From an uncultured Prevotellaceae bacterium (GTDB lineage: Bacteria > Bacteroidota > Bacteroidia > Bacteroidales > Bacteroidaceae), in the NCBI GenBank assembly GCA_947170495.1, contig CAMVUB010000002.1:11781-75780 (forward strand): a stretch of 64,000 nt of DNA. Direction: 5' to 3'. Both the position numbers and the translations under genes were made by a program. The notes below the pieces were generated by a model. It was not told the DNA's origin, did not search any database, and saw only the letters and a program-made list of their open reading frames with translations. Shown here piece after piece: positions 1 through 53,217 of this stretch. Position 1 is the first letter of the stretch. Every line of letters starts with the position of its first letter.

Positions 1-345
1 GAGTGTCTCCATGCCGATATACGAGACCTCCACGGTAATGGCCTGCCCCTTGGGTACGGCCAGCGTGAACTTACCGTCGGCATCGGCCACGGCTCCCGCC
101 TTCGTCTCGCGCACACGGATGTTGGCACCGGGCAGCGTCTCGCCACTCGTGTCCTTCACCACACCCGTTAACAACAACTGGTCTGCGGAGATGGTAGCAG
201 GCCGTTGGGGCACAACGCCCTGCATGGGCACTTGAGCAAACAAAGCCGAAGACCCACTCCCAACCCCTCCCGTGGGGGAGGGGAGAAAAGTTACTTGAGC
301 GATTGTAAGGCTCAACGTTAATATGACTTTACACGTAATCCTCAT
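1..345 (-). CDS. TonB-dependent receptor (SusC/RagA-type), first 115 codons; gene continues past window start
   Basis: Absent from the ORF track because there is no stop in the window. From ATG 345 it reads MRITCKVILTLSLTIAQVTFLPSPTGGVGSGSSALFAQVPMQ...TGVVKDTSGETLPGANIRVRETKAGAVADADGKFTLAVPKGQAITVEVSYIGMETL. That is a signal peptide followed by the carboxypeptidase-regulatory-like domain that heads SusC-type receptors. Confidence 0.6.
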   Translation of the reverse strand, partial: MRITCKVILTLSLTIAQVTFLPSPTGGVGSGSSALFAQVPMQGVVPQRPATISADQLLLTGVVKDTSGETLPGANIRVRETKAGAVADADGKFTLAVPKGQAITVEVSYIGMETL

Positions 346-405
346 TTTGTTTTTTCTTATTCGGTAATCATCCCTCTCCCTCACGGGAGGGGTTTGGGGT
401 GGGTC
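251..405. repeat. GC-rich inverted-repeat junction cassette (arms 251-285 and 371-405)
   Basis: Arms are GACCCACTCCCAACCCCTCCCGTGGGGGAGGGGAG and TCCCTCTCCCTCACGGGAGGGGTTTGGGGTGGGTC. Confidence 0.85.
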
Positions 406-1582: not shown

Positions 1583-2338
1583 TTATATTCTCCCTTGTTC
1601 CTTATAGCTGTAGTAGCTGCCATCGGTGACGATGATGTGGTCCAGGAACTTGAGGTTCATGAGTTTGCATGCCCTCTGCAGGTGGTCTGTGAGTTGGTCA
1701 TCCTCGGGCGAGGGCTTGATGCTGCCCGAGGGATGGTTATGGGCGAAAGCGACGGTGGGCGCCTGACGTATCAGCGCCTCGCGCACGACCAGTCGCACAT
1801 CCACGGTCACGCCTGTGATGCCTCCTTTGCTAATGAGGAAGGGACGACCAGCGAGGCTGTTGTCGGCACGCAGGTAGATGGCATAGCTCTCCTCGTGGCC
1901 GTGGTCACGCACCAGCGGCAGCATCACGTGGTACAGATCGACGGAGGACTTCACATAGCGTTTCTCCTCAGCGGCCTCCATCAGGCGGCGCTTGCCCAGT
2001 TCGCAGGCGGCCAGGATGCTGACGGCCTTGGCGGGGCCAAGTCCCTTATAGTTCTTTGTCAAGTCGTTCAGGGACAGACGGCTCAACGTCTTCAGACTCC
2101 CCCCGCAGTCGGCCAGCAGGCGCTGCATGAGCTGCACGGCCGTCTCCTCCGTGTTGCCCGAGCCAATCAGGATGGCCAGCAACTCAGCAGGCGACAAGGC
2201 TGCCGCGCCCTGCTCCATCAACCGCTCACGCGGCCGCTCGTCTATGGGGAGTTGCTTAAGAGTTAGGGACCCACCCCCAACCCCTCCCGTAATGGAGGGG
2301 AGTTGTTGGCGCGTTGTAGTATGATGAATTTTTTCCAT
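1583..2338 (-). CDS. radC: RadC-family JAMM protein (UPF0758)
   Basis: PIDERPRERL, LSPAELLAILIGSG and a C-terminal HNHPSGSIKPSPED motif. The first ~25 codons are encoded by the repeat cassette at 2268-2426. Confidence 0.8.
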   Translation of the reverse strand: MEKIHHTTTRQQLPSITGGVGGGSLTLKQLPIDERPRERLMEQGAAALSPAELLAILIGSGNTEETAVQLMQRLLADCGGSLKTLSRLSLNDLTKNYKGLGPAKAVSILAACELGKRRLMEAAEEKRYVKSSVDLYHVMLPLVRDHGHEESYAIYLRADNSLAGRPFLISKGGITGVTVDVRLVVREALIRQAPTVAFAHNHPSGSIKPSPEDDQLTDHLQRACKLMNLKFLDHIIVTDGSYYSYKEQGRI

Positions 2339-2426
2339 TTGTTTTTTCGATATTCCGTTATTTCGATTTCCTCATCCCGTCTTTTCCCCTTCTCCCCTCC
2401 ATCACGGGAGGGGTCGGGGGTGGGTC
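2268..2426. repeat. GC-rich inverted-repeat junction cassette (arms 2268-2302 and 2392-2426)
   Basis: Arms are GACCCACCCCCAACCCCTCCCGTAATGGAGGGGAG and CTCCCCTCCATCACGGGAGGGGTCGGGGGTGGGTC. Confidence 0.85.
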
Positions 2427-5957: not shown

Positions 5958-7604
5958 ATGGCTAACAAACCCGATTTCAAGTACGCCCCGATGTTTCAGC
6001 TGGGCGAAGACAAGACACAGTATCGCCTCCTGACGAAGGAGGGCGTCACCACCTCCACTTTCGAGGGCAAGGAGATCGTGAAGGTCTCCAAGGAAGCCCT
6101 GACACTGCTGGCCCAGCAGGCCTTCCACGATGTGGAGTTCATGCTGCGCCGCGAGCATAACCTGCAGGTGGCTGCCATCCTCAATGACCCCGAGGCCAGC
6201 GAGAACGACAAGTACGTGGCCCTGCAGTTCCTGCGCAATGCCGAGGTGGCCGCCAAGGGCATCCTGCCCTTCTGCCAGGACACCGGCACCGCCATCATCC
6301 ACGGCGAGAAAGGCCAGCAGGTGTGGACGGGCTTCGAGGACGAAGAGGCCCTCTCACGCGGCGTCTTCAACACCTTCACGCAGGACAACCTGCGCTACTC
6401 GCAGAACGCCCCGCTGAACATGTACGACGAGGTCAACACGCGCTGCAACCTGCCCGCACAGATTGACATCGAGGCCACCGAGGGCGCCGAGTACCGCTTC
6501 GTGATGGTCGCCAAGGGTGGCGGCTCGGCCAACAAGACCTATTTCTACCCGATGACCAAGGCCACCATCCAGAACGAGGGTACGCTCATCCCGTTCCTCG
6601 TGGAAAAGATGAAGAGCCTCGGCACGGCAGCCTGCCCGCCTTACCACATCGCTTTCGTCATCGGCGGCACTTCCGCCGAGAAGAACTTGCTGACGGTGAA
6701 GCTGGCTTCGATCAAGTACTACGACAGCCTGCCCACGACGGGCGACGAGACGGGTCGCGCCTTCCGCGACATCGACCTGGAGAAGAAGCTGCTGAAGGAA
6801 GCTCACAACATCGGTTTGGGCGCCCAGTTCGGCGGCAAGTACGTGGCCCACGACATCCGCGTCATCCGTCTGCCGCGCCACGGCGCCAGCTGCCCCATCG
6901 GCATGGGCGTGAGCTGCTCCGCCGACCGCAACATCAAGGCCAAGATCAACCGCGACGGCGTGTGGCTGGAAGTCATGGACAGTAACCCCACCGAGCTCAT
7001 CCCCGAGGCACTGCGCCGTCCGGGCGAGGGCACGAAGGGCATTGAGATCGACCTCTCGAAGGGCATCGATGCCGTGCGCGCCGAACTCACCAAATATCCT
7101 GTCAGCACGCGCGTGAACCTTAAAGGTACTATCATTGTGGCGCGCGACATCGCCCATGCCAAGCTGAAAGCACGCCTCGACGCCGGCGAGGGTATGCCCG
7201 AATACTTCAAGAAATACCCTGTCCTCTATGCCGGTCCCGCCAAGACGCCCGAGGGCTACCCCTGCGGCTCCATGGGTCCCACGACGGCCAACCGCATGGA
7301 CCCCTACGTGGATGAGTTCCAGGACAATGGCGCCAGCCTCGTGATGATCGCCAAGGGCAACCGCTCGCAGGCCGTCACCGATGCCTGCAAGAAGCACGGC
7401 GGCTTCTACCTGGGCACCATCGGCGGCGTCGCTGCCGTCCTCTCGCAGTCGAGCATCAAGTCCATCGAGTGTGTGGAATATCCCGAGCTGGGCATGGAAG
7501 CCATCTGGAAGATCGAGGTCGAGGACTTCCCCGCCTTCATCCTCGTGGATGACAAGGGCAACGACTTCTTCCAGCAACTCAAGCCCCTCTGCTGCAAGAA
7601 CTAA
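5958..7604 (+). CDS. fumB: Class I (Fe-S) fumarate hydratase
   Basis: 548 aa fused alpha/beta class I fumarase. Contains CQDTGTAII, a GGGSANK-type block and a C-terminal GPTTANRMD block. Confidence 0.9.
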
Positions 7605-8861: not shown

Positions 8862-10958
8862 ATGGAACCATTGATTACCAATCCGACGTGGATATTCCTC
8901 GTCATGCTCTTCGTCATCCTGCTGGTGCCCATCCTCCTGCGGCGCCTGCGCATACCCCATATCATCGGCCTCATCGTGGCCGGTGCGGTGCTGGGTGAGC
9001 ACGGACTGAATGTGCTGGCGCGCGACACCTCGTTCGAGCTGTTCGGACAAGTGGGCATCTACTACATCATGTTCCTGGCAGGGTTGGAGATGGACATGGG
9101 CAGCTTCCGCCGCCACGGCGCCAAGGGAGCGGCCTTCGGCGCATGGACCTTTGTCGTGCCCTTCATCCTGGGCTTCATCTCCATGCGCTACGCGCTGGGC
9201 ATGAGCCGCCAGACGGCGGTGCTGGTGAGCTGCATCCTCTCCTCGCACACACTCGTCACCTACCCCATCGTGGGGCGCTACGGACTGGGCAAGCATCCCA
9301 GCGTGGTCTATGCCATCATCGCCACGGCCATCGCCTCCTTCACGGCGCTGCTGACGCTGGCCATCGTGGTGCAGAACAAACGGGGTGGCGGCGATGCCGT
9401 CTATTGGCTCCGTTTCGGCGTGGGCATCGTATTGTACATCATCACCGTGGCCTACACCTTCCCCAAGATCGGGCGCTGGTTCCTGCGTCGCAACGAGGAC
9501 GCCGTGACGCAGTACATCTTCGTGCTGGCCATGGTGTTCATCAGCGCATTCCTGGCGGTGTCCGTGGGACTCGAAGGGCTGCTGGGTGCCTTCCTGGGGG
9601 GCCTGGTACTCAACCGCATCATCCCACATGGCGGGCCGCTGATGAGCCGCATCGAGTTCGTGGGTAACGCGCTGTTTGTGCCGTGGTTCCTCATCGGCGT
9701 GGGCATGCTCATCGACGTGGGCATCCTCGCGGGCGACTACCAGACGCTGCTGCTCTGCGTGGCGTTCATCGCCGTGGGCACACTGGGCAAATGGCTCGCA
9801 GCGCTCATCATGGAACGCCTCAACGGCCTCGAGCGCGTGGATCGCTTCATCATGTTCGGCCTCACCAACTCACACGCCGCCGGTGCCCTCGCCATCGTGA
9901 TGATCGGCACACAGCCTGGACTGGACCTGATGAGCCCCGAGATCCTCAACGCCACCGTCATCCTCATCCTCTTCTCCTGCATCATCAGCTCGCTGGCCAC
10001 CGAGAAGGGGGCGCGACAGCTGGCGCTGCACACCAACGAGATGGACCGCAACCGAGGCAGCTACCACGGCAAATGTCTCACGGCCTATGCCTACCCGCGC
10101 ACCGTGGATGCCCTCACACAGCTCAGCATCCTCATCCGCAACCCGCTCATCCCCGACAGCCTCATGGGCCTCGCCGTGTCGATGGACGATGACGACGACG
10201 ATATGCTGCGTGCCCGTGGCGTCAGCAATCTGGAGAAGGCGCAGGCCATTGCGGCTGCTGCCAACGTGAAGATGTCCGTCATGAGCCGCATCAGCAGCAA
10301 CGTGGCCAGCGCCATCGTGCACACGATGCGCGAGGTGGATGCCGGCGAAATCATCCTCGGCCTCCACGAGACCGACGAGGGGCAGCCCTCCGGCAAGCTG
10401 GGTGTCACGGCACAGAGCGTGCTCAGCGCCACGCACCGCGAGGTGCTGCTGGTGCGCCTGCAGATGCCGCCGGGCACCATCCGCCGCATCATCGTGGCGG
10501 TGCCGCCGATGGCGGAGTACGAGGTGGGCTTCTACAAATGGGTGGAGCACATCTGCCGCATCGCGGAGCTCACGGGGCAGCCTGTGCGCTTCCACACGCT
10601 GGGAGACACCGGCTTCTATATCAAGGAATACCTAACCACCCACCACCCACTCGTGCAACAGGAGGTGGTCACGGAGCGCGGCTTCGGCAACCTGCTCATG
10701 CGACTGCCCTCCGAGGTGAATGCCGACCACCTGCTCGTCATCGTGACGGCGCGCGCCGGCTTCATCTCACACACGCCAGCCCTGAACACCCTGCCCCATT
10801 TCATCGCACAACATTTTGCAAATAGCAACGTCATCCTACTCTACCCCGACCAATACGGCGACCCGCAGGAGTCGCTCTCTGTGTTCGCGCCCAACGGGCA
10901 GAGCGTCACGCAGCGCCAGCTGCTGTTCGAGAAATGGCTGAATAAAATGAGGAGTTGA
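8862..10958 (+). CDS. Cation:proton antiporter (CPA1/CPA2 family) with ~300-aa cytoplasmic C-terminal domain
   Basis: About 390 aa of polytopic Na+/H+-exchanger-like sequence, followed by a soluble tail of two USP-like halves. Confidence 0.75.
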
Positions 10959-10960
10959 TA

Positions 10961-11650
10961 ATGATTCAGTTAAGAAATATACACAAGAGCTTTGGCTCAT
11001 TGGAAGTCCTGAAAGGCATTGACCTGGACATCGCACAAGGCGAGGTGGTGAGCATCGTAGGCCCCAGCGGCGCCGGCAAGACCACCCTGCTGCAGATCAT
11101 CGGCACGCTGGACAGCGCCGACAGCGGCTCCGTCGTCATCGACGGCACCGACATCTCCACCCTCGGTCAGAAGGCGCTGGCGCGCTTCCGCAACCAGCAC
11201 ATCGGTTTCGTGTTCCAGTTCCACCAGCTGCTACCCGAGTTCACGGCGCTGGAGAACGTGATGATTCCTGCGCTCATCGCAGGACGCAGCCAGGGCGAGG
11301 CCCGCAAGCGCGCACAGGAGCTGCTGGCGTTCATGGGCCTCAGCGACCGCGCCACCCACAAGCCCGCAGAACTCAGCGGCGGCGAGAAGCAGCGCGTAGC
11401 CGTAGCCCGCGCACTCGTAAACAAACCCGCCGTGGTGCTGGCCGACGAGCCCAGCGGCAGCCTCGACAGCGCCAACAAGGCGGAGCTCCACGCCCTCTTC
11501 TTCCGCCTGCGCGACGAGATGGGGCAGACCTTCGTCATCGTCACCCACGACGAGGAACTGGCCAAGACCACAGACCGCACGATACAGATGAAGGACGGCA
11601 TGGTGAGGGGAAGCGAGATCGAAGATGAAACAGGAGGAACGATTCTATGA
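10961..11650 (+). CDS. ABC transporter ATP-binding protein (LolD/MacB-type)
   Basis: Walker [10 protein letters not shown], signature LSGGEKQR, Walker B VVLADEP. First ATG is at 10961. The track's TTG at 10955 overlaps the upstream stop. Confidence 0.8.
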
Positions 11651-12480
11651 AATTGGAATTAGGAAAAACAAATACATTGCGTGTGGTGCGGCGTGCCGAG
11701 CAGGGACTCTACCTCAGCGGAGGCCCCGAGGACATCCTGCTCCCCAACCGCTATGTGCCGGAGGGTACAGAGATAGGCGATGAAATCGACGTTTTTGTAT
11801 ATCTCGACAACGAAGAGCGCCTCATCGCCACCACCGAGACACCCAAGGCACAGGTGGGCGACTTCGCATGGCTCGAGGTGGCGTGGGTCAACAACTACGG
11901 TGCCTTCCTGGACTGGGGACTGATGAAAGACCTCTTCGTGCCCTTCCGCGAGCAGAAGATGAAGATGCAGAAAGGCAAGAGCTATCTCGTGCACTTGCAC
12001 ATCGACCCCGAGACCTACCGCATCATGGCCTCCGCCAAAGTGGAGCGCTACCTCAGCACCGACTTCCCGTCCTACCACGGCGGCGACGAAGTGGAGGTCC
12101 TCGTGTGGCAGAAGACAGACCTGGGCTTCAAGGCCATCGTGGATAACCGCTTCCAGGGGCTCCTCTTCGACGACGAGATCTTCCGCTCCCTGCACAGCGG
12201 CGACCGTCTCAAGGCATACGTCAAGCAGGTGCGGCCCGACGGCAAGATAGACCTCTCGCTACAGAAGAAGGGGCAGAAAGCCGTCCACGACTTCAGCGAT
12301 ATCCTGCTGGAACACCTGCGCGCCAACGGCGGCACCACGCCCTTGGGCGACAAGAGCCCTGCGGAGGAGATCTACGCCCTCTTCGGCGTCAGCAAGAAGG
12401 TGTTCAAGAAAGCCGTCGGCGACCTCTACAAACAACGCCTCATCACGATTGAACCCGAAGGGCTGAAATTGAAAGTTTAA
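11647..12480 (+). CDS. S1-domain RNA-binding protein, CvfB/YitL family
   Basis: 277 aa with repeated S1-like segments ([27 protein letters not shown]) and a C-terminal winged-helix-like tail. Its ATGA overlaps the upstream stop. Confidence 0.7.
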
Positions 12481-12639
12481 AAAAGCGGCCAAAGAAAGGT
12501 CCGAAATATCGATATAACGATATAACGAAATAACGAAGGCCGCCGGAAAATTTAAAATTGAAATATCGAGAATTGAACGAAATATCACTCAACTTGAAAC
12601 TTTCAACCTGAAACTTGAAACTATTCCGATAGGAATGTG

Positions 12640-12647
12640 TACCTTTG
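12640..12647 (+). promoter_or_regulatory. -7 box TACCTTTG for gpmI
   Basis: 64 nt upstream of ATG 12712. Confidence 0.5.
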
Positions 12648-12711
12648 CGCCCGCAAAACGCTCTAACCGCTAACCTCTAAACTTTAAACTCTCAACTCTA
12701 AACTAAATAAT

Positions 12712-14232
12712 ATGGCAAAGAAAGCTCTGCTGATGATCCTCGACGGATGGGGCATCGGCAACAAACAGAAAGGCGACGTCATCTATCAGACGCCTACGCC
12801 CTACATGGACTACCTCAACGCAACCTACCCCCACAGCCAGCTGCAGGCCAGCGGCGAGAATGTGGGTCTGCCCGACGGACAGATGGGTAACTCCGAAGTC
12901 GGCCACCTCAACATCGGTGCCGGTCGCGTGGTCTATCAGGACCTCGTGAAAATCAACCGCGCCTGCAAGGACGGCAGCATCCTGCAGAACAAGGAGGTGC
13001 AGAACGCCTTCGAGTATGCCGTGCGCGAGGGCAAGGCCATACACTTCATGGGTCTCACCAGCAACGGCGGCGTGCACTCCAGCCTCGACCACCTCTACAA
13101 GCTCTGCGAGATCTCCCAAGAATATAAGGTACGCGAGACCTATGTCCACTGCTTCATGGACGGCCGCGACACAGACCCCCGCTCCGGCGTGGGCTTCATC
13201 CGCGAGCTGCAGGAGAAGTGCAAGGAGACCGGTGCACACATCGCCAGCATCATCGGCCGCTTCTACGCCATGGACCGCGACAAGCGCTGGGAGCGCGTGA
13301 AGATTGCCTACGACCTGCTCATCAGCGGCGAAGGCTTCCAGGCCAAGGACATGGTGGAGGCCATGGAACTCTCCTATGCCGACGGCGTCACCGATGAGTT
13401 CGTGAAGCCCATCAACAACGCCAATATCGACGGCACCATCAAGGAAGGCGATGTCATCATCTTCTTCAACTACCGCAACGACCGCGCCAAGGAGCTCACC
13501 ATCGTGCTCACCCAGCAGGACATGCCCGAGCAGGGTATGAAGACCATCCCCGGCCTGCAGTACTACTGCATGACCCCCTACGATGCCAGCTTCAAGGGCG
13601 TGCACATCCTCTTCCCCAAGGAGAACGTGGAGAACACCCTCGGCGAGTACATCAGTCGTCAGGGCCTCAAGCAGCTCCACACCGCCGAGACCGAGAAGTA
13701 CGCCCACGTCACCTTCTTCTTCAACGGCGGCCGCGAGCAGCCCTACGAGGGCGAGGACCGCATCCTCGTAGCCAGCCCCAAGGTTGCCACCTACGACCTC
13801 AAGCCTGAGATGTCCGCTTATGAGGTCAAGGACAAGCTAGTAGCTGCCATCAAGGAGGACAAGTACGACTTCATCGTCGTCAACTTCGCCAACGGCGACA
13901 TGGTCGGACATACCGGCGTCTATGAGGCCATCGAGAAGGCCGTCGTTGCCGTCGATGCCTGCGTCAAGGAAGTCGTGGAGACCGCCAAGGCCACCGGCGA
14001 CTACGAGGTCATCATCATCGCCGACCACGGCAATGCCGACAACGCCATCAACGCCGACGGCACCCCCAACACCGCCCACAGCCTCAACCCCGTGCCCTTC
14101 ATCTACGTCACGGCGAACAAGACTGCCAAGGTCGAGGACGGCATCCTGGCCGACGTGGCTCCCAGCATCCTCCACATCATGGGCCTGCAGCAACCCGCCG
14201 ACATGACCGGCCGCTGCCTCATCAAAGACTAA
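12712..14232 (+). CDS. gpmI: 2,3-bisphosphoglycerate-independent phosphoglycerate mutase
   Basis: 506 aa with [22 protein letters not shown] and ADHGNAD motifs. Confidence 0.95.
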
Positions 14233-22788: not shown

Positions 22789-22828
22789 ATAATGACCAAA
22801 AAATGCGACATCGCCCGTTTTTGCGCGG

Positions 22829-22836
22829 CAAAGGTA
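22829..22836 (-). promoter_or_regulatory. -7 box TACCTTTG for tRNA-Lys
   Basis: 40 nt upstream of the tRNA 5' end. Lies inside the left arm of the 22-bp inverted repeat. Confidence 0.5.
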
Positions 22837-22899
22837 AGGAGTTTTTGCGACACAGCCAACTTTTTCATAGTTTTTTTGTCGTGGCACGCAAAAACTCCT

Positions 22900-22907
22900 T
22901 ACCTTTG
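22900..22907 (+). promoter_or_regulatory. -7 box TACCTTTG for flippase-like operon
   Basis: 16 nt upstream of ATG 22924. Lies inside the right arm of the 22-bp inverted repeat. Confidence 0.5.
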
Positions 22908-22923
22908 CAGCAGATTTACAGAG

Positions 22924-44595: not shown

Positions 44596-45573
44596 ATGGA
44601 AGAGATCATTGCCCCTATTCCCGTTGACATCCTGATGAGCGAGCTCACCGAGGACAAGCGTCTGCGATTCACCAACAAGAGCAACAACGAAGTGTATGTC
44701 ATCACATGGCAGGACGCTCCCAACGTGCTCCGCGAGATTGGTCGTCTTCGCGAGATAGCCTTCCGCGCTGCTGGTGGTGGCACCGGCAAGGCTTTGGACC
44801 TCGATGAGTTTGACACCATGGAGAATCCCTACAAGCAGCTCATTGTCTGGGATCCCGAGGCAAAGGCTATTCTCGGCGGCTATCGCTACCTGCTGGGCAC
44901 GGAAGCGCGCTTCGATGAAGCGGGGCAGCCCATTCTGGCGACATCCCACATGTTCCATTTCTCAGAACAATTCATCCGTGACTTCCTCCCCTACACCATC
45001 GAGCTGGGGCGCAGCTGGGTCACCTTAGAATATCAAAGCACGCGCGCAGGCGCAAAGGCCCTCTTTGCCCTGGACAACCTCTGGGACGGACTGGGAGCGC
45101 TCACCGTCGTCATGCCAAACGTCCGCTATCTCTTCGGCAAGATGACGATGTACCCGAGCTACGACCGCCAGGCACGCGACATGATCCTCTACTTCCTCAA
45201 GAAACACTTCCCCGACCCCGATCAACTCATCCTCCCGATGAAACCGCTCGAAATTGAAGCGGACAGCGACAAGCTCGCTGCCCTCTTCAGCGAGGATGAA
45301 TTCAAGGCGGACTACCGCATCCTGAACCGCGAGGTGCGTCAGCGTGGCTATGACATCCCGCCGCTCGTCAATGCCTACATGAGCCTCTCGCCGACGATGC
45401 GTATGTTCGGCACAGCCATCAACTACGGCTTTGGCGATGTCGAGGAGACAGGCATCCTGATTGCCGTCGATGAAATCCTCGACGAGAAGCGCGTGCGCCA
45501 CATCGACAGCTTTGCCAAAGACCACCCCGAGGCCATATCATTTACCAGCGGGGCCAACAAACTGATATCATAA
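44596..45573 (+). CDS. Hemolysin-type GNAT N-acyltransferase (OlsB/GlsB-like)
   Basis: 325 aa with REIGRLREIAFRAAGGGTGKALDLDEFD..., characteristic of amino-acid-lipid N-acyltransferases. Confidence 0.7.
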   Translation: MEEIIAPIPVDILMSELTEDKRLRFTNKSNNEVYVITWQDAPNVLREIGRLREIAFRAAGGGTGKALDLDEFDTMENPYKQLIVWDPEAKAILGGYRYLLGTEARFDEAGQPILATSHMFHFSEQFIRDFLPYTIELGRSWVTLEYQSTRAGAKALFALDNLWDGLGALTVVMPNVRYLFGKMTMYPSYDRQARDMILYFLKKHFPDPDQLILPMKPLEIEADSDKLAALFSEDEFKADYRILNREVRQRGYDIPPLVNAYMSLSPTMRMFGTAINYGFGDVEETGILIAVDEILDEKRVRHIDSFAKDHPEAISFTSGANKLIS

Positions 45574-45613
45574 AACTACCTATTATACCTCTTATTAGGC
45601 TTATCATCTAACT

Positions 45614-46768
45614 ATGATTACCATTAAGAAAGTAGAAAGTAAAAGCGAATTACGCGCTTTCATCCGTTTCAACTATCATCTTTATAAAGGAAATCCCTAT
45701 GCCGTGCCCGACTTCCTGGAGGACATGCTCGACACGTTCAACCGCCGTAAGAACGCAGCCTTTGAGTTCTGCGAGGCAGACCTGTTCCTGGCATATCGCG
45801 ACAAGAAAATCGTAGGCCGCGTAGCAGCCATCATCAACCACAAGGCCAACAAGACATGGCAGGCGAAGAACGTCCGCTTCGGATGGATTGACTTCATCGA
45901 GGACATCGAGGTACTGAAGGCGCTGCTGGACACCGTCGAGCAATGGGGCCGCGAGCGCGGCATGAAGAAGATCGTAGGCCCGCTGGGTTTCACGGACATG
46001 GACCCCGAGGGTATGCTCATCGACGGCTTCGACCAGCTCTCCACGATGAGTACCATCTACAACTTTCCCTACTACCCCCGCCTCATCGAGCAGCTGGGCT
46101 ATGAGAAGGAGATCGACTGGGTGGAGCGCAAGGTGATGGTCCCGACCGCCGACGAACACCAGGCCGACATGCAGAAATACTTCCGCGTGGCTGAGATGAG
46201 TATGAAGCGCTACAACCTGCACATGCGCCACTTCAAGAATGCCAGGGAGATCCTGGCCGAGGAGGACGGCAAGTACGTGCAGAAGTGCTTCAACGTCATC
46301 AACAAAGCTTACGCCGACCTCTATGGCTACTCCGAGATGAACGAGCGTCAGATCCAGCAGTACGCCACCACCTACCTGCAGTTCCTGGACATGCGCCTGC
46401 TGGCCATTGTGGAGAACGAGCAGAATGAACCCATCGCGATGGGCGTCGGCATGGGCTCCCTGTCCTATGCCCTACAGAAGGCCCACGGCAAGCTGTTCCC
46501 CTTCGGCTGGTGGCATCTGGCCAAGGCCATCTTCATCAAGCCGGCACCCGTCATCGACCTGCTGTTGGTCGGCGTGCTGCCTGAGTACCAGAACAAGGGC
46601 GTGAACGCACCGCTCTTCGCACAGATCATCAAGGTCGCCCAGAAGATGGGCTTCGTATGGGCTGAGACCCACCCGCAGCTGGAGTCCAACGAGAAGAGCC
46701 AGGGCCAGTGGGCACACCTCGACTGCACCATCCACAAGAGAAGAAGGTGCTACCAGAAGGACCTTTGA
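45614..46768 (+). CDS. GNAT-fold protein of unknown specificity
   Basis: 384 aa with GRVAAIINHKAN...RFGWIDF and a C-terminal VLPEYQNKGVNAPLF block (acetyltransferase motif A-like). Confidence 0.55.
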   Translation: MITIKKVESKSELRAFIRFNYHLYKGNPYAVPDFLEDMLDTFNRRKNAAFEFCEADLFLAYRDKKIVGRVAAIINHKANKTWQAKNVRFGWIDFIEDIEVLKALLDTVEQWGRERGMKKIVGPLGFTDMDPEGMLIDGFDQLSTMSTIYNFPYYPRLIEQLGYEKEIDWVERKVMVPTADEHQADMQKYFRVAEMSMKRYNLHMRHFKNAREILAEEDGKYVQKCFNVINKAYADLYGYSEMNERQIQQYATTYLQFLDMRLLAIVENEQNEPIAMGVGMGSLSYALQKAHGKLFPFGWWHLAKAIFIKPAPVIDLLLVGVLPEYQNKGVNAPLFAQIIKVAQKMGFVWAETHPQLESNEKSQGQWAHLDCTIHKRRRCYQKDL

Positions 46769-46899
46769 CCCCGCCCCCTTACCCCTCCCGAAGGGGAGGG
46801 GAGTAATTTCCATCAAGAACTCATATATAATAAATGGATAGCCACGATATATCAAATGATTCTACTCCCCTCCCTCGGGAGGGGCAGGGGGGTGGGGTC
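46767..46899. repeat. GC-rich inverted-repeat junction cassette (arms 46767-46803 and 46865-46899)
   Basis: Same arm family as the two cassettes above, with a 61-nt spacer. Confidence 0.85.
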
Positions 46900-48864
46900 T
46901 CTTACTCCGAAGACAATATCCGCCACCTCTCCGATATGGAGCACGTGCGCACGCGACCCGGTATGTATATCGGTAAGCTGGGCGACGGCTCCCACGCCGA
47001 GGACGGCATCTATGTGTTGCTGAAAGAAGTCATAGACAACTCCATCGATGAGTTCAAGATGAACGCCGGCAAGCGCATCGAGGTGACCATCGACGAGCAC
47101 CTGCGCGTCACCGTGCGCGACTACGGCCGTGGTATCCCCTTGGGCAAGCTGGTGGAAGCCGTGTCGATGTTGAACACGGGTGGTAAGTACGATTCCAAGG
47201 CTTTCAAGAAGAGCGTCGGCCTCAACGGCGTCGGTCTGAAAGCCGTCAACGCCCTCTCCTCGCACTTCGTAGCACAGAGCTTCCGCGATGGCGAGACGCG
47301 CCGCGCCACCTTCGAGTGTGGCCAGCTCGTCACCGACGAAGGCACCGCCAACAGCGGCGCCGCCTCCGTGGTCAACACGCTGACCGCCGACCCCGAGAAC
47401 GGCACCCTCGTCGTCTTCGAACCCGACAACAGCCTCTTCAAGAACTACCTCTTCCGCGATGAGTTCGTGGAGGTGATGCTGCGCAACTACACCTACCTGA
47501 ACACCGGCCTCGCCATCATGTTCAACGGCCGCCGCATCCTCTCCCGCAACGGCCTTGAGGACCTGCTCACCGACACAATGACCACGCAGCCCCTCTACCC
47601 CATCGTACACCTCAAGGGCGAGGACATCGAGATCGCCTTCACCCACACCAACGGACAGTACGGCGAGGAGTACCACAGCTTCGTCAACGGCCAGCACACC
47701 ACCCAGGGCGGTACCCATCAGAGCGCCTTCAAGAAATACATCGCCGAGACCATCAAGGACTTCTCCGGCAAGAACTTCGACTACAGCGATATACGCAACG
47801 GCATCGTTGCCGCCATCAGCATCAACATACAGGAACCGTTGTTCGAGAGCCAGACGAAGATCAAACTGGGCTCGCTCTCCACAGAGCCCAACGGCGGCGG
47901 TATCTCCATCGATAAGTTCATCGGTGACTTCGTGAAGGAGCAGGTCGATAACTACCTGCGCCGTAATCCCGAGGTGGCCGAGGTGCTGCTGCAGAAGGTC
48001 GGCGAGAGCGAGCGCGAGCGCAAGGCGATGGCCGGCGTGGCCAAGCTCGCCCGCGAGCGCAGCAAGAAAGCCAACCTGCACAACCGCAAGCTACGCGACT
48101 GCAAGATACATTTCAACGACCCCAAGGGCGAGCGCAAGGAAGACTCCTGCATCTTCATCACCGAGGGCGACTCCGCCAGCGGCAGCATCACCAAGAGCCG
48201 CGACGTGATGACGCAGGCCGTCTTCTCCCTCCGAGGCAAGCCCCTGAACTGCTTCGGCCTCACCAAGAAAGTGGTCTATGAGAACGAGGAGTTCAATCTC
48301 CTGCAGGCAGCCTTGAACATCGAGGATGGCCTCGACGGCCTGCGCTATAACAAAGTCATCGTGGCCACGGATGCCGATGTCGATGGCATGCATATCCGTC
48401 TGCTGATGATCACCTTCTTCCTGCAGTTCTTCCCCGAACTCATCAAGAAGGGACACGTCTATATCCTACAGACGCCGCTCTTCCGCGTGCGCCAGCGTCG
48501 CAAGAAGCTCTCCAAAGCGCGCTTAGAGGCCATTGGCGAGGCAGACTCCAAGGGTGACTTCATCACGCGCTACTGCTACAGCGAGGAGGAACGCCAGCAG
48601 AACATCGAAGCCCTCGGGCCGGAGCCTGAGATCACGCGCTTCAAAGGTCTCGGTGAAATCAGCCCCGATGAATTCCGCGGTTTCATCGGCGAAGACATCC
48701 GTCTGGAACAGGTCTCGCTGCATAAGAGTGACCAGGTAGCAGAGCTGCTGGAGTACTACATGGGCAAGAACACCCTCGAACGCCAGAACTTCATCATCGA
48801 CAACCTCGTCATCGAAGAAGATAGGGCAGAGGATGAGGAGGAAGAGCATGAATATAAGGTATAG
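46834..48864 (+). CDS. parE: Type IIA topoisomerase subunit B (topoisomerase IV ParE-type)
   Basis: [15 protein letters not shown] ATPase motifs, Toprim ([14 protein letters not shown]). The first ~22 codons are encoded by the repeat cassette. Confidence 0.85.
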
Positions 48865-48883
48865 GGGGAACAATTAAGCATAC

Positions 48884-49408
48884 ATGAGTAACCACCATAT
48901 CACAAATGATTCTACTCCCCTCCCCCCCCGGGAGGGGCAGGGGGGTGGGGTCTTATTATTCCCAGGCAGCTTCGACCCTTTCACCCTTGGCCACGCAGAC
49001 GTGGTTGAGCGTGCGCTGCAGCTGTTCGACGAGGTGGTGATTGCGGTGGGCATCAACGAGCAGAAGGCCGGATGGATACCTGTCGAGGAACGAGTGCGAG
49101 CCATACGTATATTATATAAGGAACAGGCGCGCGTGCGCGTGGAGAGCTACAGCGGCCTCACCACCGATTTTGCCTATTCCATCGGTGCAAAAGCCATCCT
49201 GCGGGGCGTGCGCAGCATCAAGGACTTCGAGTACGAGATGCAGATGGCCGACGTCAACCGCCAGCTCACAGGCATCGACACCGTCGTCCTCTTCACCGAT
49301 CCCCGCTACGCCTCCCTCTCCAGCTCCCTCGTCCGCGAGCTCGCCCACTTCGGCAAGGACATCACAGCCTTCCTGCCGGAAGGTTTTCTATTGAAGAATG
49401 TTGATTGA
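48884..49408 (+). CDS. coaD: Pantetheine-phosphate adenylyltransferase
   Basis: FPGSFDPFTLGH plus SSSLVRE. The N-terminal 22 aa come from a half cassette. Confidence 0.85.
   Translation: MSNHHITNDSTPLPPREGQGGGVLLFPGSFDPFTLGHADVVERALQLFDEVVIAVGINEQKAGWIPVEERVRAIRILYKEQARVRVESYSGLTTDFAYSIGAKAILRGVRSIKDFEYEMQMADVNRQLTGIDTVVLFTDPRYASLSSSLVRELAHFGKDITAFLPEGFLLKNVD
48915..48952 (+). repeat. Solo right arm of the same cassette family
   Basis: CTCCCCTCCCCCCCCGGGAGGGGCAGGGGGGTGGGGTC. It is preceded by the same ATATCA(C/A)AAATGATTCTA motif as the parE copy. Confidence 0.8.
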
Positions 49409-49505
49409 TGATTGATGAATATAATAAGTTACTATGAAAAGATTCCTATACATAGCGATTGCTCTTCTTTTGCAATCATCAATCATCAATCATCAATCAT
49501 CAATT
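49401..49505. repeat. Inverted heptamer arrays bracketing the ctp start codon
   Basis: TTGATTGATGATTGATGA (49401-49418) versus (CAATCAT)x4 (49473-49505). Confidence 0.8.
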
Positions 49506-51044
49506 AAGGCGCAGCCTTCCTCTGACCCTCGCGAGCAGGCGATACGCAAGCTCATACAGAGCACGGTGATGATCAACCAGCTGTATGTTGATACCGTCAA
49601 CCTCAACCGCCAGGTAGAGGATGCCATCACGGGGATGCTCTCCAAGCTCGACCCCCATTCCACCTACACCAACGCCGAGGACACCAAGAAGATGAACGAG
49701 CCGCTGCAGGGTAACTTCGACGGCATCGGCGTGCAGTTCAACATGCTGGAGGACACGCTCGTCGTCATCCAACCCGTGGCCGGCGGCCCCTCGGAGAAGA
49801 AAGGCATCCTGGCCGGCGACCGCATCGTCAGCGTCAACGACACCGCCATTGCCGGCGTGAAGATGAGCCGCGAGAACATCATGAGCCGCCTGCGTGGCCC
49901 GCGCGGCACCAAGGTGAAGCTGGGCATCGTCCGTCGCGGCATCAAAGATGTGCTGACCTTCAACATCACCCGCGATAAGATCCCCGTCAAGTCCGTAGAT
50001 GCTGCCTATATCGCGGCACCCGGCATCGGCCTCATCCGTTTCAGCAACTTCTCAGCCACCACACACGACGAAGTCGTCGATGCCATCAAGCAGCTGAAGC
50101 GCCAGGGCATGCAGTCCCTCATCCTCGACCTTCAAGGCAATGGCGGCGGCTATCTCGGTGCGGCCGTGGAGATTGTCAGCGAGCTGCTGCCCAAGGGCGA
50201 GCTCATCGTGGACACACGCGGTCGCGACGGCATCCGCGTGGCTGAATACCGCTCCTCGGGCGGTGGCCTGTTCACCGACGGGTGCCTCGTGGTGCTCGTG
50301 GATGAGCACTCCGCCTCGGCAGCCGAGATCCTGTCCGGCGCCATTCAAGACCACGACCGCGGCACTATCATCGGGCGCCGCACCTTCGGTAAAGGCCTCG
50401 TGCAACGCCCCATATCTCTTGAGGACGGCAGTATGATACGCCTCACCGTAGCCCGCTACTACACCCCCTCGGGCCGTTGCATCCAGAAGCCTTATGAGAA
50501 AGGTGATGCGAAGAGTTACGCTCGTGATGTCATCGACCGCTACAACCGCGGTGAGCTCACCAATGCCGACAGCATCCACTTCCCCGACTCGCTGCGCTAT
50601 AAGACCCTGAAAAAGGGGCGCACCGTCTATGGCGGCGGTGGCATCATGCCCGACATCTTCGTGCCACTCGACACCACCCGCTACACACGCCTCTACCGCG
50701 AGCTCACCGCCCGCAGCTATATCAACAACGCCAGCCTCCACTATATGGACGAGCACCGCAAGCAGCTCAGTAAGCAGTACAAGAGCTTCGACGACTTCTG
50801 CGCCACGTTCACAATGCCCCAGGACGTCCTCGATGACATCCTCGCCGACGCCGCCAAGAAGGACAGCCTGCAGGCCCGCGACGACGACGAGCTGCAGCGC
50901 ACCCTACAGAACATGCGCCATGTCCTCAAAGGCCTCGTCGCACGCGACCTATGGGACTACAGCGAATACTTCCAGATCATCTATGCCGACGACCCCGTCG
51001 TCGCCAAAGCCATCGAAGTCCTCTCCGCCACCAAGAAGGACTGA
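49434..51044 (+). CDS. ctp: S41-family C-terminal processing peptidase
   Basis: PDZ region, the catalytic-Ser block EHSASAAEI and the Lys block RRTFGKG. Has a signal peptide. Confidence 0.85.
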   Translation: MKRFLYIAIALLLQSSIINHQSSIKAQPSSDPREQAIRKLIQSTVMINQLYVDTVNLNRQVEDAITGMLSKLDPHSTYTNAEDTKKMNEPLQGNFDGIGVQFNMLEDTLVVIQPVAGGPSEKKGILAGDRIVSVNDTAIAGVKMSRENIMSRLRGPRGTKVKLGIVRRGIKDVLTFNITRDKIPVKSVDAAYIAAPGIGLIRFSNFSATTHDEVVDAIKQLKRQGMQSLILDLQGNGGGYLGAAVEIVSELLPKGELIVDTRGRDGIRVAEYRSSGGGLFTDGCLVVLVDEHSASAAEILSGAIQDHDRGTIIGRRTFGKGLVQRPISLEDGSMIRLTVARYYTPSGRCIQKPYEKGDAKSYARDVIDRYNRGELTNADSIHFPDSLRYKTLKKGRTVYGGGGIMPDIFVPLDTTRYTRLYRELTARSYINNASLHYMDEHRKQLSKQYKSFDDFCATFTMPQDVLDDILADAAKKDSLQARDDDELQRTLQNMRHVLKGLVARDLWDYSEYFQIIYADDPVVAKAIEVLSATKKD

Positions 51045-51094
51045 GCCCACAGAAGCGCAAGATTTGGGCGATGGAGTGCGGGGTATTGATTAAT

Positions 51095-51160
51095 CCATCA
51101 TGATGGATTGATTGTGCCATCATGATGGATTAATGGAGCCATCGTGATGGATTCATCGAA
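51095..51160 (+). repeat. 3 x 22-bp tandem repeat with 12-bp palindromic core CCATCATGATGG
   Basis: Cores lie at 51095, 51117 and 51139. The third is CCATCGTGATGG. Confidence 0.9.
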
Positions 51161-51210
51161 ACAAAGGGGGGCAAGGGTTCAAAGATTCAAGGTTTCAAGG
51201 TTCCAAAGGT

Positions 51211-51864
51211 TCAATTCGAGACGGTGAGGGTGCTGCCGGAGGGGTAGAAGGTGGCGCGGTAGCGGAAGAGGGAGCGGCCGGTGGGGCCGTCGATGACGAT
51301 GCCTTGGGTGTTGAGGTCATAGCGGCGACCGCAGCGGGGACATTCGGCCCGCTGGCTCTCGCGGAGGGTGAGGTTGCGGGTGATGGAAGCTTCCTCGTAG
51401 CAGTTGGCGCAGGCGAGGTCATAGCATACGACATTGGCCTGCGTGCTCAGCTGCTCGGCCATAATGGGGGTACCTACGATGAGGCCGCTGAGGCCAAGTA
51501 CGAAGTTGGACTTACGCTCCAGCTCGGTGAGCTCGTGGACGTAGTCCTCACGCAAGCCGGGGCTGTGGAAGACGTAGGTGTTGTTGTGGGCGGTGATGGT
51601 GCAGAACTCGCCCGGGTTGTTGAGGGAGCTGTTGAGCTGGGGAATAAGGTTGGTGGCCGAGAGGGTCAGGCGAACGAGGATGTTGCTGTAGGGCTGCTCG
51701 GCTTTCTCGCAAGAGGAGAGGAGGATGGAAAGATTGAAAAATTGAAAGATTGAAAGAAGGAGGAGGAGATGGTGGGGGGAATGAGGCCTATTGGGCTTAT
51801 GGGCCTTATAAGGCTTATAGGGCTTATGGGCCGAATGGGCGTTATGGGGAAAGGAAAAGTTCAA
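51211..51864 (-). CDS. Hypothetical lipoprotein with CxxC...CxxC zinc-ribbon-like C-terminal half
   Basis: Lipobox LLSSC; CANCYE...CPRCGRRY. TTG is the only start before the signal peptide, 10 nt after the argH stop. The His/Lys/Pro-rich n-region comes from a 9-bp tandem repeat. Confidence 0.5.
   Translation of the reverse strand: MNFSFPHNAHSAHKPYKPYKAHKPNRPHSPHHLLLLLSIFQFFNLSILLSSCEKAEQPYSNILVRLTLSATNLIPQLNSSLNNPGEFCTITAHNNTYVFHSPGLREDYVHELTELERKSNFVLGLSGLIVGTPIMAEQLSTQANVVCYDLACANCYEEASITRNLTLRESQRAECPRCGRRYDLNTQGIVIDGPTGRSLFRYRATFYPSGSTLTVSN
51785..51849 (-). repeat. 9-bp in-frame tandem repeat (GGGCTTATG-like x7) inside lipoprotein 5' end
   Basis: Encodes the HKPYKPYKAHKPNRPH-type tract. 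Confidence 0.75.
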
Positions 51865-51876
51865 TCTTTCAATTCT

Positions 51877-53217
51877 TCAACAGCCGGTGAGGGCTTTTTC
51901 GGCGGCGGCGACTTTGTCGAAGGGGAAGCCGACGAGGATGTCTTGCATGAGGGCGGCGATGTCGGCGGTACAGAGGTTGCCAATGGAGCCGGCATGGGTG
52001 TGGTGCACCTCCTTGACGGGGGTAAACTGGCCGGCTTCGATGTCGAGGCCCACCTTGCGGTAGGCATCGCGGAAGGGCATGCCGTCGGCTGCGAGGCGAT
52101 TGACTTCCTCGACGGAGAACATCAGGTCGTAGCGGGGATCGTCAAGGATGTGGTCGTTGACCTGCATCTTATTGATGATATAGGTGGTCATGGTGAGGCA
52201 GTCCTTGAGCTCAGCGAAGGCGGGCAGGAAGACTTCCTTGATGATCTGCAGGTCGCGGAAATAGCCGCTGGGGAGGTTGTTCATGATGAGCATGACCTGC
52301 TGGGGCAAGGCCTGCAGCTTGTTGCACTTGGCGCGCGTGAGCTCGAAGACGTCGGGGTTCTTCTTATGGGGCATAATGCTGGAGCCTGTGGTGCACTCGG
52401 CGGGTAGCTTCACGAAGGCGAAGTTCTGGGAGTTGAACAGGCAGGCATCGAAGGCGAGCTTGGCGATGGTGCCGGCCACGGAAGCGAGGGCGAAGCTGAC
52501 GTTGCGCTCCATTTTACCGCGCCCCATCTGGGCATAGACGACGTTGTAGGCCATGGAGTCGAAGCCGAGGAGGTCTGTGGTCATCTGGCGGTCGAGGGGG
52601 AAGCTGGAGCCGTAGCCTGCTGCGGAGCCCAAGGGGTTGCGGTTGACCATCTTATAGGCGGCCTGCAGGAAGAGCATATCGTCGGTGAGGCTCTCGGCAT
52701 AGGCTCCAAACCAGAGTCCGAAGCTGGATGGCATCGCCACCTGAAGGTGTGTGTAGCCGGGCATGAGCACGTTCTTATAGCGCTCGCTCTGTGCCTGCAG
52801 CTCATCGAAGAGTGTCTTCACGAGCTCCACAATGTCGCGGAGCTGGCGGCGCGTCCACAGCTTCAGATCCATGAGGACCTGATCGTTGCGTGAGCGCCCG
52901 CTGTGGATCTTCTTACCGACGTCACCGAGGCGGCGCGTGAGGAGGAGCTCCACCTGAGAGTGCACGTCCTCGACGCCCTCCTCGATCTGGAACTCGCCGG
53001 CGCGTATGTCCTTGAGGATATTGCGGAGCTCGGCGAGGAGGAGGCGCAGCTCGTCGGCAGTGAGGAGGCCGATGCTCTCGAGCATGGTGATATGGGCCAT
53101 GGAGCCCATGACATCGCTTTCGGCGAGGTAGGCGTCCAACTCGCGGTCGCGCCCTACGGTGAACCGCTCAATCTCGGCGGTGGGCGTCACATTCTTCTGC
53201 CAGAGTTTATTAACCAT
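51877..53217 (-). CDS. argH: Argininosuccinate lyase
   Basis: 446 aa with the fumarate-lyase signature GSSIMPHKKNP. Confidence 0.9.
   Translation of the reverse strand: MVNKLWQKNVTPTAEIERFTVGRDRELDAYLAESDVMGSMAHITMLESIGLLTADELRLLLAELRNILKDIRAGEFQIEEGVEDVHSQVELLLTRRLGDVGKKIHSGRSRNDQVLMDLKLWTRRQLRDIVELVKTLFDELQAQSERYKNVLMPGYTHLQVAMPSSFGLWFGAYAESLTDDMLFLQAAYKMVNRNPLGSAAGYGSSFPLDRQMTTDLLGFDSMAYNVVYAQMGRGKMERNVSFALASVAGTIAKLAFDACLFNSQNFAFVKLPAECTTGSSIMPHKKNPDVFELTRAKCNKLQALPQQVMLIMNNLPSGYFRDLQIIKEVFLPAFAELKDCLTMTTYIINKMQVNDHILDDPRYDLMFSVEEVNRLAADGMPFRDAYRKVGLDIEAGQFTPVKEVHHTHAGSIGNLCTADIAALMQDILVGFPFDKVAAAEKALTGC

Follow-up and report, generated by a model that had tools for sequence, protein, structure and literature searches.

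The element described here is a GC-rich palindromic cassette of 133 bp at positions 46767-46899 (plus strand) of a 64,000-nucleotide stretch of DNA from an uncultured Prevotellaceae bacterium (contig CAMVUB010000002.1; the whole stretch is called the window below), where it lies between a GNAT-like gene and parE, the gene for topoisomerase IV subunit B. It is probably a copy of a short, non-autonomous palindromic element that resembles REPINs, i.e. doublets of repetitive extragenic palindromic (REP) sequences, and MITEs, i.e. transposable elements of the miniature inverted-repeat type, and that belongs to a family common in uncultured rumen-type Prevotellaceae, the full-length members of which carry a DUF559 open reading frame (ORF) between the same arms. 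Both the long and the short forms would occupy co-directional gene junctions and would be built in such a way that operon function is preserved. At the left arm, the outer end (T/GACCCC or TA/GACCC) would abut or supply the stop codon of the upstream gene, and the interior would give an A/T-rich leader and an ATG, which in full-length copies would overlap or directly follow the DUF559 stop codon. Translation would then continue through the right arm, which is open in all frames, and add a Pro/Gly-rich linker to the host protein, the gene for which would have lost its original start and initial codons.

The parE cassette and its predicted tag

The arms of the parE cassette (46767-46799 and 46867-46899) are 33 nt each and 82% complementary, and each of them contains an 8-bp hairpin of its own, CCCCTCCC/GGGAGGGG. 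The left arm (46767..46803) is untranslated and consists of a C-rich tail, GACCCCGCCCCCTTA, and then the hairpin CCCCTCCC-GAAG-GGGAGGGG. The inner part of this left end is a conserved module, AGTAATTTCCATCAAGAACTC (46802..46822), which was recognized in an alignment (A4) of the parE and coaD cassettes of the window with those of two other loci, L178 and L214, and which is also present in a full-length DUF559 element (L094). An A/T-rich leader (46823..46833) ends with an in-frame TAA (46831-46833) and is directly followed by the start codon and the element-borne 22-codon tag (46834..46899), with the right arm making up the final 12 codons. The translated right arm (46865..46899) comprises the hairpin CCCCTCCC-TC-GGGAGGGG and then a G-rich tail, CAGGGGGGTGGGGTC; together with the adjoining hairpin half (GGGAGGGGCAGGGGGGTGGGG), this tail fits the G-quadruplex consensus by its sequence. 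The upstream GNAT-like gene (45614..46768, plus strand; Pfam Acetyltransf_1, E 4.7e-8) ends with a TGA at 46766-46768, the GA of which forms the first two bases of the left arm, and its product terminates in RRCYQKDL in the window versus RRCYQKSLK in the related locus L120. The inverted arms, the internal hairpins and the overlap with the TGA had all been described in the initial annotation, and the sequence and the ORF list bear them out.

The parE gene (46834..48864, plus strand) was identified by Pfam and by comparison with 120 homologues, and its N-terminus appears to be cassette-derived. An exact-sequence search with the ParE of the window matched no record. As had been claimed, ATG 46834 is the single in-frame canonical start ahead of the conserved part of the protein, the next one being ATG 46936, which lies past the conserved Tyr, and the right arm is read in frame directly ahead of the conserved ParE N-terminal arm. 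The ParE homologues (n=120, Bacteroidales) possess a variable leader of 10-35 residues followed by an invariant block, in which Y-x-[ED]-x-x-I-x-x-L-[ST] is kept in 120/120 sequences; in the window this block adjoins the tag directly. In GHKL type IIA topoisomerases, each subunit's N-terminal arm, with the Tyr in it, forms part of the ATP site of its partner. Because the conserved block directly follows the tag, a ParE starting at Met35 would lack the Tyr-bearing N-terminal arm, and the comparison of the 120 homologues therefore supports the earlier statement that initiation downstream of the repeat would cost ParE conserved residues.

Similar relations are found in other host proteins. The Pfam profile CTP_transf_like begins (position 1) at residue 25 of CoaD, position 2 of UPF0758_N corresponds to residue 28 of RadC, and position 3 of RmlD_sub_bind to residue 24 of the RfbD protein encoded in L178, in each case right after the arm. 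Neither ATG, GTG nor TTG is found in the interval from the arm to the first conserved residue of the domain in parE, coaD, radC, rfbD of L178, cysN of L131, pepP of L028 and argC of L270 and L271. Furthermore, ATG and arm are separated by a whole number of codons in 8/8 copies, the distance amounting to 27, 30 or 36 nt in the seven copies available as DNA and to 10 residues in P0013, a ParE with a similar arm from another species that was compared at the protein level. Such frame-preserving spacing is what selection on the reading frame would produce.

The cassette of L178 is located between a DUF4924 gene (stop TGA/GACCCC) and rfbD, with the tag fused to RfbD. Conservation in alignment A4 extends over both arms and, between them, over the inner module AGTAATTACCTTCAAGAACTC, the ATG and ten codons, and the B-type cassette, spacer included, is preserved at four different junctions, namely those of parE and coaD in the window, of rfbD in L178 and of a gene in L214. 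The ParE tag is also carried by CoaD of the window, RfbD of L178, the L214 protein and CysN of L131. Judged from these sequences, the B-type cassette recurs as a single unit with the ATG inside it, and this ATG is very likely used as the translation start. We infer that ParE, CoaD and RadC of the window would be made with cassette-derived N-termini, and the same probably holds for the SusC-like receptor of the window.

The hairpin motif occurs six times in the 64-kb window (0.04 occurrences expected), which holds seven arms. The cassette before coaD (48865..48952, plus strand) is shortened at its 5' end and retains a left inner-half remnant, GGGGGAACAATT, the ATG at 48884, the tag and the right arm (48913-48952), in which an extra CCC (3 nt) leaves the frame intact. 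An A-type cassette connects a GT2 glycosyltransferase gene to radC on the minus strand (2268..2426); its arms (2391-2426 and 2268-2303) are 35 nt long and 94% complementary, its ATG lies at 2336-2338, its tag reads MEKIHHTTTRQQLPSITGGVGGGS, and the glycosyltransferase stop codon TAG (2426-2428) overlaps the arm. A further A-type cassette, also on the minus strand (251..405; arms 370-405 and 251-286; ATG 343-345), is found between a metallophosphoesterase gene, the TAG of which (409-411) lies at the cassette, and the gene for a SusC-like TonB-dependent receptor, where the arm is read within the signal-peptide region. These two A-type copies share only the arms and about 20 nt ahead of the ATG (…GAAAAAACAAAATG). 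Besides the parE-type 12-residue reading, the arm is translated as QLPSITGGVGGGS and FLPSPTGGVGSGS, i.e. in two frames. The additional copies and the use of two reading frames had both been proposed earlier and are confirmed here. That the gene-proximal arms are free of stop codons is likewise true, but it is uninformative on its own because the arms hold almost no A or T.

At the RNA level, the arms are predicted to pair into a stem of about 35 bp, with the ATG in an A/U-rich loop. The folding suggested for the parE junction was carried out and yielded a very stable stem, with predicted values of -86.2 kcal/mol (z -7.1) for the parE cassette, -89.9 kcal/mol (z -10.8) for the radC cassette (2268-2426) and -76.4 kcal/mol (z -7.2) for the SusC-like cassette (251-405). 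In this model some 30 nt of the loop would be unpaired to either side of the ATG, which would be enough for a 30S subunit. No relevant Rfam match was obtained at a permissive threshold, no terminator-like T tract is present at the cassette, and a scan for sigma-70 promoters and intrinsic terminators gave nothing useful there, the sigma-70 consensus being unsuited to Bacteroidota.

A DUF559 gene between the same arms

The distribution of the arm was assessed in a scan of species-representative genomes, and the figures for arms and doublets refer to the matches listed in it. The arm is present in at least about 45 loci from rumen-type Prevotellaceae or "Bacteroidaceae" metagenome-assembled genomes, a subsequent profile search yielded about 100 arms, and a metagenome sample contributed arm matches in 120 loci. 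The search for arms elsewhere, which had been recommended as a check, thus finds them dispersed over many Prevotellaceae loci. Neighbouring arms are oriented tail-out in 26 cases and tail-in in 1, and the spacers of the doublets are bimodal in length, measuring either 29-142 nt or 404-522 nt. When the pairs were scored for stop and start codons, as had also been suggested, the upstream ORF was found to end inside the arm or within -9 to +1 nt of it in 18/26 doublets, the downstream gene to start in the spacer or at most 9 nt past the arm in 19/26, and both features to coincide in 14/26. In addition, an arm resembles its doublet partner more closely than it resembles arms of other doublets, to a degree reached in 0/500 permutations.

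All three long-spacer doublets (404-522 nt) enclose an ORF of about 125 residues that belongs to PF04480 (DUF559; E 1e-27 to 1e-35). Conversely, 5/5 DUF559 genes in 118 arm-selected loci, including two in Sphingomonas, lie between two arms, and seven DUF559 homologues that were traced to their contigs are located at argG-argC or cysD-cysN junctions. The full-length elements measure about 0.5-0.6 kb, and their host genes are argC, cysN, cysD and pepP. Their layout is constant, with the upstream stop at the left-arm tail (TTCTGA/CCCCACCCCCTGCCCCTCCCGAGGGAGGGGAG in L131), a leader of about 30 nt, the DUF559 ORF, a read-out ATG and the right arm. The read-out ATG is positioned at -17 to +7 from the DUF559 stop codon, and 9-20 codons plus the right arm lead in frame into the host gene, as in CysN (MTHSITNENTPLPREGKGGGV-DIRAYLDADERK) and ArgC (MSKQSHTTSLPLGEARRGSILVGILGAAGYTGGEL). 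The overlap between the DUF559 stop and this ATG suggests translational coupling, and 10 of the 13 host genes examined with this layout have no alternative canonical start.

The long and short forms resemble each other at both ends. In L094 the read-out ATG comes after the DUF559 stop region (…CAATAAATGATAAATGGAC). Both ends of this full-length element match the parE cassette of the window, in 38/43 nt (88%) on the left and 47/50 nt (94%) on the right, in addition to the ATG region. An internally deleted derivative, or a landing site of the long form, would be expected to look like this, and the short form rather likely derives from, or depends on, the DUF559 form. No DUF559 remnant was detected in the short-cassette spacers. 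DUF559 itself is a predicted Vsr-like PD-(D/E)XK nuclease, and its motif D[FY]-x(8-16)-[IVL]E[IVL]DGxxH is kept in 117/120 homologues. It could be the nuclease that drives the spread of the family, although the odds of this seem slightly less than even. In our literature search, the coverage of which was incomplete, no description of DUF559 genes flanked by such repeats was found. A tandem duplication in L094 (5789-5850, minus strand) has placed a second copy of the ~31 nt with which the DUF559 ORF begins (ATGAAGCAGGCATATAACACAGCA) immediately upstream of the ORF.

Strain-level turnover and alternative explanations

The gene order GNAT-like gene, parE, coaD, ctpA is conserved in relatives, which allows the cassette to be compared with junctions that lack it. 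In L119, the ParE of which is 87% identical, the parE junction measures 15 nt and the gene starts with GTG (MAEELEVTRPVDYTDDNI); in L120 the parE junction is 9 nt and the coaD junction 10 nt long, and CoaD starts as MEKIAIFPGSFDP. The 5' ends of parE and coaD in relatives without the element, which had been proposed for inspection, consequently display junctions of 9-15 nt and start codons of their own. It follows from these short native junctions that the cassette of the window has taken the place of the spacer, the native start codon and the variable leader, along with about one codon at the end of the upstream gene.

A metagenome scan happened to provide three contigs of the window's own species, among them L263, which is 98.8% and 97.2% identical to the window over 44747-52893, and L214, which is about 98% identical over 9231-12871, as well as the further contig L178. 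At three junctions a GC-rich cassette is present in one strain and absent from another that is 97-99% identical, i.e. junction alleles change state within the species. Between the antiporter and lolD-like genes (10953..10976, plus strand), the window has no cassette and the stop and start codons overlap, whereas L214 (1727-1982) contains a ~255-nt cassette of a related subfamily, which gives LolD a new N-terminus; the native ATG has become ATC beside the arm. Between the lolD-like gene and the next gene (11596..11686, plus strand), the window again lacks a cassette, whereas L214 (2620-2856) has a B-type copy with the tag MSNHNMPNDSTPLP, into the left arm of which the upstream protein reads on. 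The right arm of this copy is split at 2759-2835 by an insertion of ~75 nt between CCCTCGGG and CAGGGGGGTGGGGTC, with the frame into the host gene open. Finally, at the coaD-ctpA junction (49383..49509, plus strand), L263 (4630-4821) possesses a GC-rich cassette where the window has an unrelated AT-rich inverted repeat of the same layout, and the CtpA signal peptide of L263 is replaced by spacer and arm (MKSTSKYFFFLLFSFSYL-LPSPFGEGLGVWL-YAQPSSDP versus MKRFLYIAIALLLQSSIINHQSSIKAQPSSDP in the window).

The spacers of cassettes before secreted proteins (the SusC-like receptor, window 251-345, minus strand; CtpA, L263 4630-4821) encode an n-region and a hydrophobic core. In both proteins the arm is read just ahead of an AQ-type cleavage motif, and the signal peptide would be partly cassette-derived. 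Within the parE cassette, the sole difference between the window and L263 is G versus A at 46779 in the left arm, opposite a T of the right arm, which as RNA corresponds to G.U versus A-U.

Whole doublets are gained or lost between strains. Comparison of junctions with and without a cassette revealed no direct repeat at the borders, i.e. no target-site duplication, and ~50-90 nt of native junction sequence are replaced at cassette sites. The codons beside the insert are far more diverged than the 97-99% background. Replacement without target-site duplication, together with the diverged adjacent codons, is better explained by homologous exchange of junction alleles than by cut-and-paste, and the odds that the cassettes spread mainly by homologous replacement rather than by cut-and-paste transposition appear evenly balanced.

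Other accounts of the cassette have to be weighed against a junction-building mobile element. One of them holds that the arms are ordinary extragenic repeats in short intergenic regions, akin to REPs or bacterial interspersed mosaic elements (BIMEs), that their overlap with coding sequence is an artefact of choosing the longest ORF, and that the real starts lie past the arm. The open frames would then merely reflect arms that are almost without A or T, REPs at ORF N-termini have been judged to be mostly misannotated (PMC3733652), a start codon is indeed found 2-9 nt past the arm in L020, L077, L021 and L016, and 83/128 metagenome arms have no ORF reading out. However, this account is improbable, as it is contradicted by the missing start codons between the arm and the first conserved residue in parE, coaD, radC, rfbD, cysN, pepP and argC (L270/L271), by the location of the ATG, which is in a conserved portion of the repeat and spaced so that the frame is kept, and by the ATC that has taken the place of the native lolD ATG in L214. 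It also seems unlikely that the arms are independent single REP units inserted on either side of a native intergenic region and start, with a spacer of host sequence. The B-type spacer is conserved over its full length at four junctions, the orientation bias is 26:1, the arms of a doublet co-vary, native spacers in relatives measure 9-15 nt as opposed to 55-90 nt, and strain differences concern the whole doublet at once; these findings have to be set against the existence of single arms and tandem arrays (L009 6065-6250), the differing spacers of the two A-type copies, and the signal-peptide-like sequence encoded by the spacers before the SusC-like gene and L263 ctpA, which would be expected of host DNA.

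The inverted repeat might instead be primarily a host regulatory RNA, acting as a processing site, a stabiliser or a translation coupler, that is kept by selection and is not mobile. The very stable stems predicted (-76 to -90 kcal/mol, z -7 to -10.8), which have the ATG in their loop, the unrelated AT-rich inverted repeat with the same layout at the coaD-ctpA junction of the window and the conversion of an A-U pair to G.U as the only strain difference in the parE cassette are all in keeping with such a role. Nevertheless, there is little to recommend it as the primary explanation, since the same sequence recurs over unrelated junctions, in many species, in tandem arrays and at non-junction sites, is gained and lost between strains and is associated with a nuclease gene, and neither an Rfam match nor a terminator-like T tract was detected. 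A regulatory side effect of the stem may nonetheless exist.

Several observations also weigh against the mobile, start-donating element favoured here. The start codons of the A-type copies (radC and the SusC-like gene) could be native, with arms inserted on either side, because the A-type spacers are unlike each other apart from the ~20 nt before the ATG, and three argC copies keep an in-frame GTG in a degenerate tail that is a possible start. According to the folding model, a ribosome would have to melt the predicted 35-bp GC stem from codon 11 on. No DUF559 gene is present within the 64-kb window, and the solved structure nearest to DUF559, 3HRL, has no assigned function. The DUF559-bearing forms found in many species share two or three orthologous junctions, which looks like old vertical inheritance, with no sign of recent movement of the long form. 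Moreover, most metagenome arms belong to another subfamily and are plain intergenic repeats (83/128); the metagenome pattern was aimed at B-type arms and mostly caught a subfamily with the loop TTCAAG or TTGTAG and the outer flank TGTAACTT. Junction building is therefore a property of a subset, and the family at large is REP-like. The initial proposal of a dispersed element that builds operon junctions and donates a start codon and a Pro/Gly-rich tag stands in so far as the cassette recurs at other junctions, but it applies to this subset only, and in the A-type copies the ATG is possibly native.

Relation to known elements and wider implications

The cassette shares many features with the REP/BIME and REPIN-RAYT systems (RAYT, REP-associated tyrosine transposase) of Enterobacteria and Pseudomonas (PMC3116915, PMC3337134, PMC3733652), which are likewise short GC-rich imperfect palindromes with many dispersed copies. 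As in the cassette family, REPs and REPINs form inverted doublets with a spacer, mostly between co-directional genes, their termini can give stop codons, some overlap ORF ends, and copies of the repeat, which greatly outnumber the associated gene, also flank it. Di Nocera et al. (PMC3733652) had already recorded REPs located at the N-termini of ORFs as well as stop codons provided by REP ends. In contrast to REPIN-RAYT, the gene flanked here is a DUF559 PD-(D/E)XK nuclease and not a Y1/HUH tyrosine transposase; in the loci examined, no RAYT was found between arms, every gene there being DUF559. Unlike REPs, the units have no GTAG/CGTC tag 5' of the hairpin (tag definition in PMC3733652), they carry an extra G-rich tail and a start codon, and the arm would be an obligatory part of host proteins. 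The CTAC of B-type units was considered as a candidate GTAG tag and rejected for its wrong polarity, as the GTAG lies 3' of the hairpin on the other strand; A-type units have neither.

Among bacterial MITEs, Correia/NEMIS, ERIC and RU-1 (PMC3733652, PMC2759123) resemble the cassette in their length of ~130-160 bp, terminal inverted repeats and lack of an enzyme of their own, and MITEs are also co-transcribed with their neighbours, insert next to or into genes, form strong RNA stems and can add peptide sequence. The cassettes, which measure 133-159 bp, have arms of 33-35 nt and contain no enzyme gene, agree with the MITE format of terminal inverted repeats in an element of 70-300 bp that encodes no enzyme. 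They differ from MITEs in lacking a target-site duplication and in replacing native sequence. Their ends are shared with a candidate autonomous partner, but DUF559, the protein that it encodes, is not a known transposase.

The Rickettsia palindromic elements of Ogata et al. 2000, which PMC3733652 mentions too, are reportedly translated in frame in functional, even essential, proteins. They are palindromic and translated like the cassette, but lie inside ORFs and do not provide start or stop codons at operon junctions, and we know of no nuclease partner for them.

The long form, on the other hand, is reminiscent of free-standing homing endonuclease genes, which are found between conserved genes as in the T4 seg/mob families (PMC2988022, PMC2790892), and of Vsr-fold homing endonucleases such as I-Bth0305I, a proven homing enzyme (PMC3239194, PMC2677866). 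A small nuclease gene wedged between conserved genes is common to both, and the fold predicted for DUF559 is Vsr-like as well. Presence/absence alleles with diverged sequence beside the insert, as in co-conversion, were seen for the short cassettes at three junctions and for no DUF559-bearing copy. The flanking hairpin inverted repeats, the abundant enzyme-less derivatives and the location in a bacterial chromosome rather than in a phage or intron set the present elements apart from homing endonuclease genes.

The initial annotation had regarded the cassette as belonging to no described class. This has to be qualified in view of its REP/BIME/REPIN-like relatives, although no description of a start-donating junction cassette was found in the literature search, the coverage of which was incomplete. 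The association with DUF559 is new here, and together with the turnover at the strain level it goes beyond that earlier proposal. With the same limit on the literature searched, the cassette family points to a kind of mobile element for which no description was found.

If the junction-building element is real, DUF559, a large orphan nuclease family, gains a concrete candidate role, and REP-like repeat biology may gain a second enzyme class. By carrying its own stop and start signals, the repeat would be harmless in packed operons, and as a result essential proteins (ParE, CoaD, RfbD, ArgC, CysN) would bear repeat-encoded N-termini that vary between strains. N-terminal regions and signal peptides can accordingly differ between near-identical strains, and start-codon calls in Bacteroidota genomes and metagenome-assembled genomes would be wrong or inconsistent at cassette sites. 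In addition, the repeats are likely break points in metagenome assembly, and many DUF559 genes are found on contigs of <1.5 kb.

Hairpin repeats also accompany DUF559 beyond the Prevotellaceae, in other phyla. On unrelated virus-like contigs (GC 40-70%), 16/79 DUF559 relatives are flanked by inverted repeats of 15-79 nt (99th percentile of the null, 11.7), and an inverted-repeat score of at least 15 is reached by 11/61 real intervals versus 0/122 shifted controls of equal length from the same loci. Most of the repeats listed are polypyrimidine/polypurine hairpins of the form CCTCTCCC-loop-GGGAGAGG, several of them with an additional GGTGAGGG-type box. Furthermore, Sphingomonadales contain a nearly identical, dispersed unit, CTCCCCTCCCGCTTGCGGGAGGGG-YYGGGGGTGGGC, with 56 matches in 35 loci, mostly as tail-in doublets. 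As a tentative view, for which the chances are judged to be somewhat below even, DUF559 proteins may be the nucleases of cross-phylum selfish elements with polypyrimidine/polypurine hairpin repeats, of which the REP-like repeats of Prevotellaceae and Sphingomonadales would be enzyme-less derivatives, and the Bacteroidota forms would sit in operon junctions, ending the upstream gene and re-starting the downstream one. If true, this would be a second, independent analogue of the REPIN-RAYT relationship, and in Bacteroidota such elements would give essential host proteins altered N-termini and signal peptides.

Some minor features of these repeats may be added. On the viral-type contigs L273-L295 the G-rich box faces the gene in Proteobacteria-like loci and points outward in Bacteroidales-like loci. 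DUF559 genes lie between Sphingomonadales units in L013 (2974-3387) and L113 (2040-2480), and the GTG of the tail in L013 may be the DUF559 start. The array in L009 (6065-6250) consists of five tandem arms with a 38-nt period, with an inverted arm alongside (6344-6379). At the inner flanks of the arms in L099, L101, L079, L011, L027 and L086, other conserved hairpin modules occur, e.g. CTCTCCCCGCTCCCCCGTGAGGGGGAGAG and CCCCTCTAAATCTCCCCGTAAGGGGAGA, in a mosaic, BIME-like arrangement.

The AT-rich inverted repeat at the coaD-ctpA junction of the window (49390-49418 and 49476-49504; 29 nt, 90% complementary) is built of TCATCAA heptamers. It copies the layout of the GC-rich cassettes, with the coaD stop codon in the left arm, the ctpA ATG (49434) in the loop and a translated right arm (SSIINHQSSI); it was found at no other site in the window, and its heptamer run within the ORF could slip. 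Further unrelated inverted repeats or palindromes, with arms of 21-44 nt that are 77-96% complementary, are located in the window at 22825-22911, 51083-51162 and 51734-51880.

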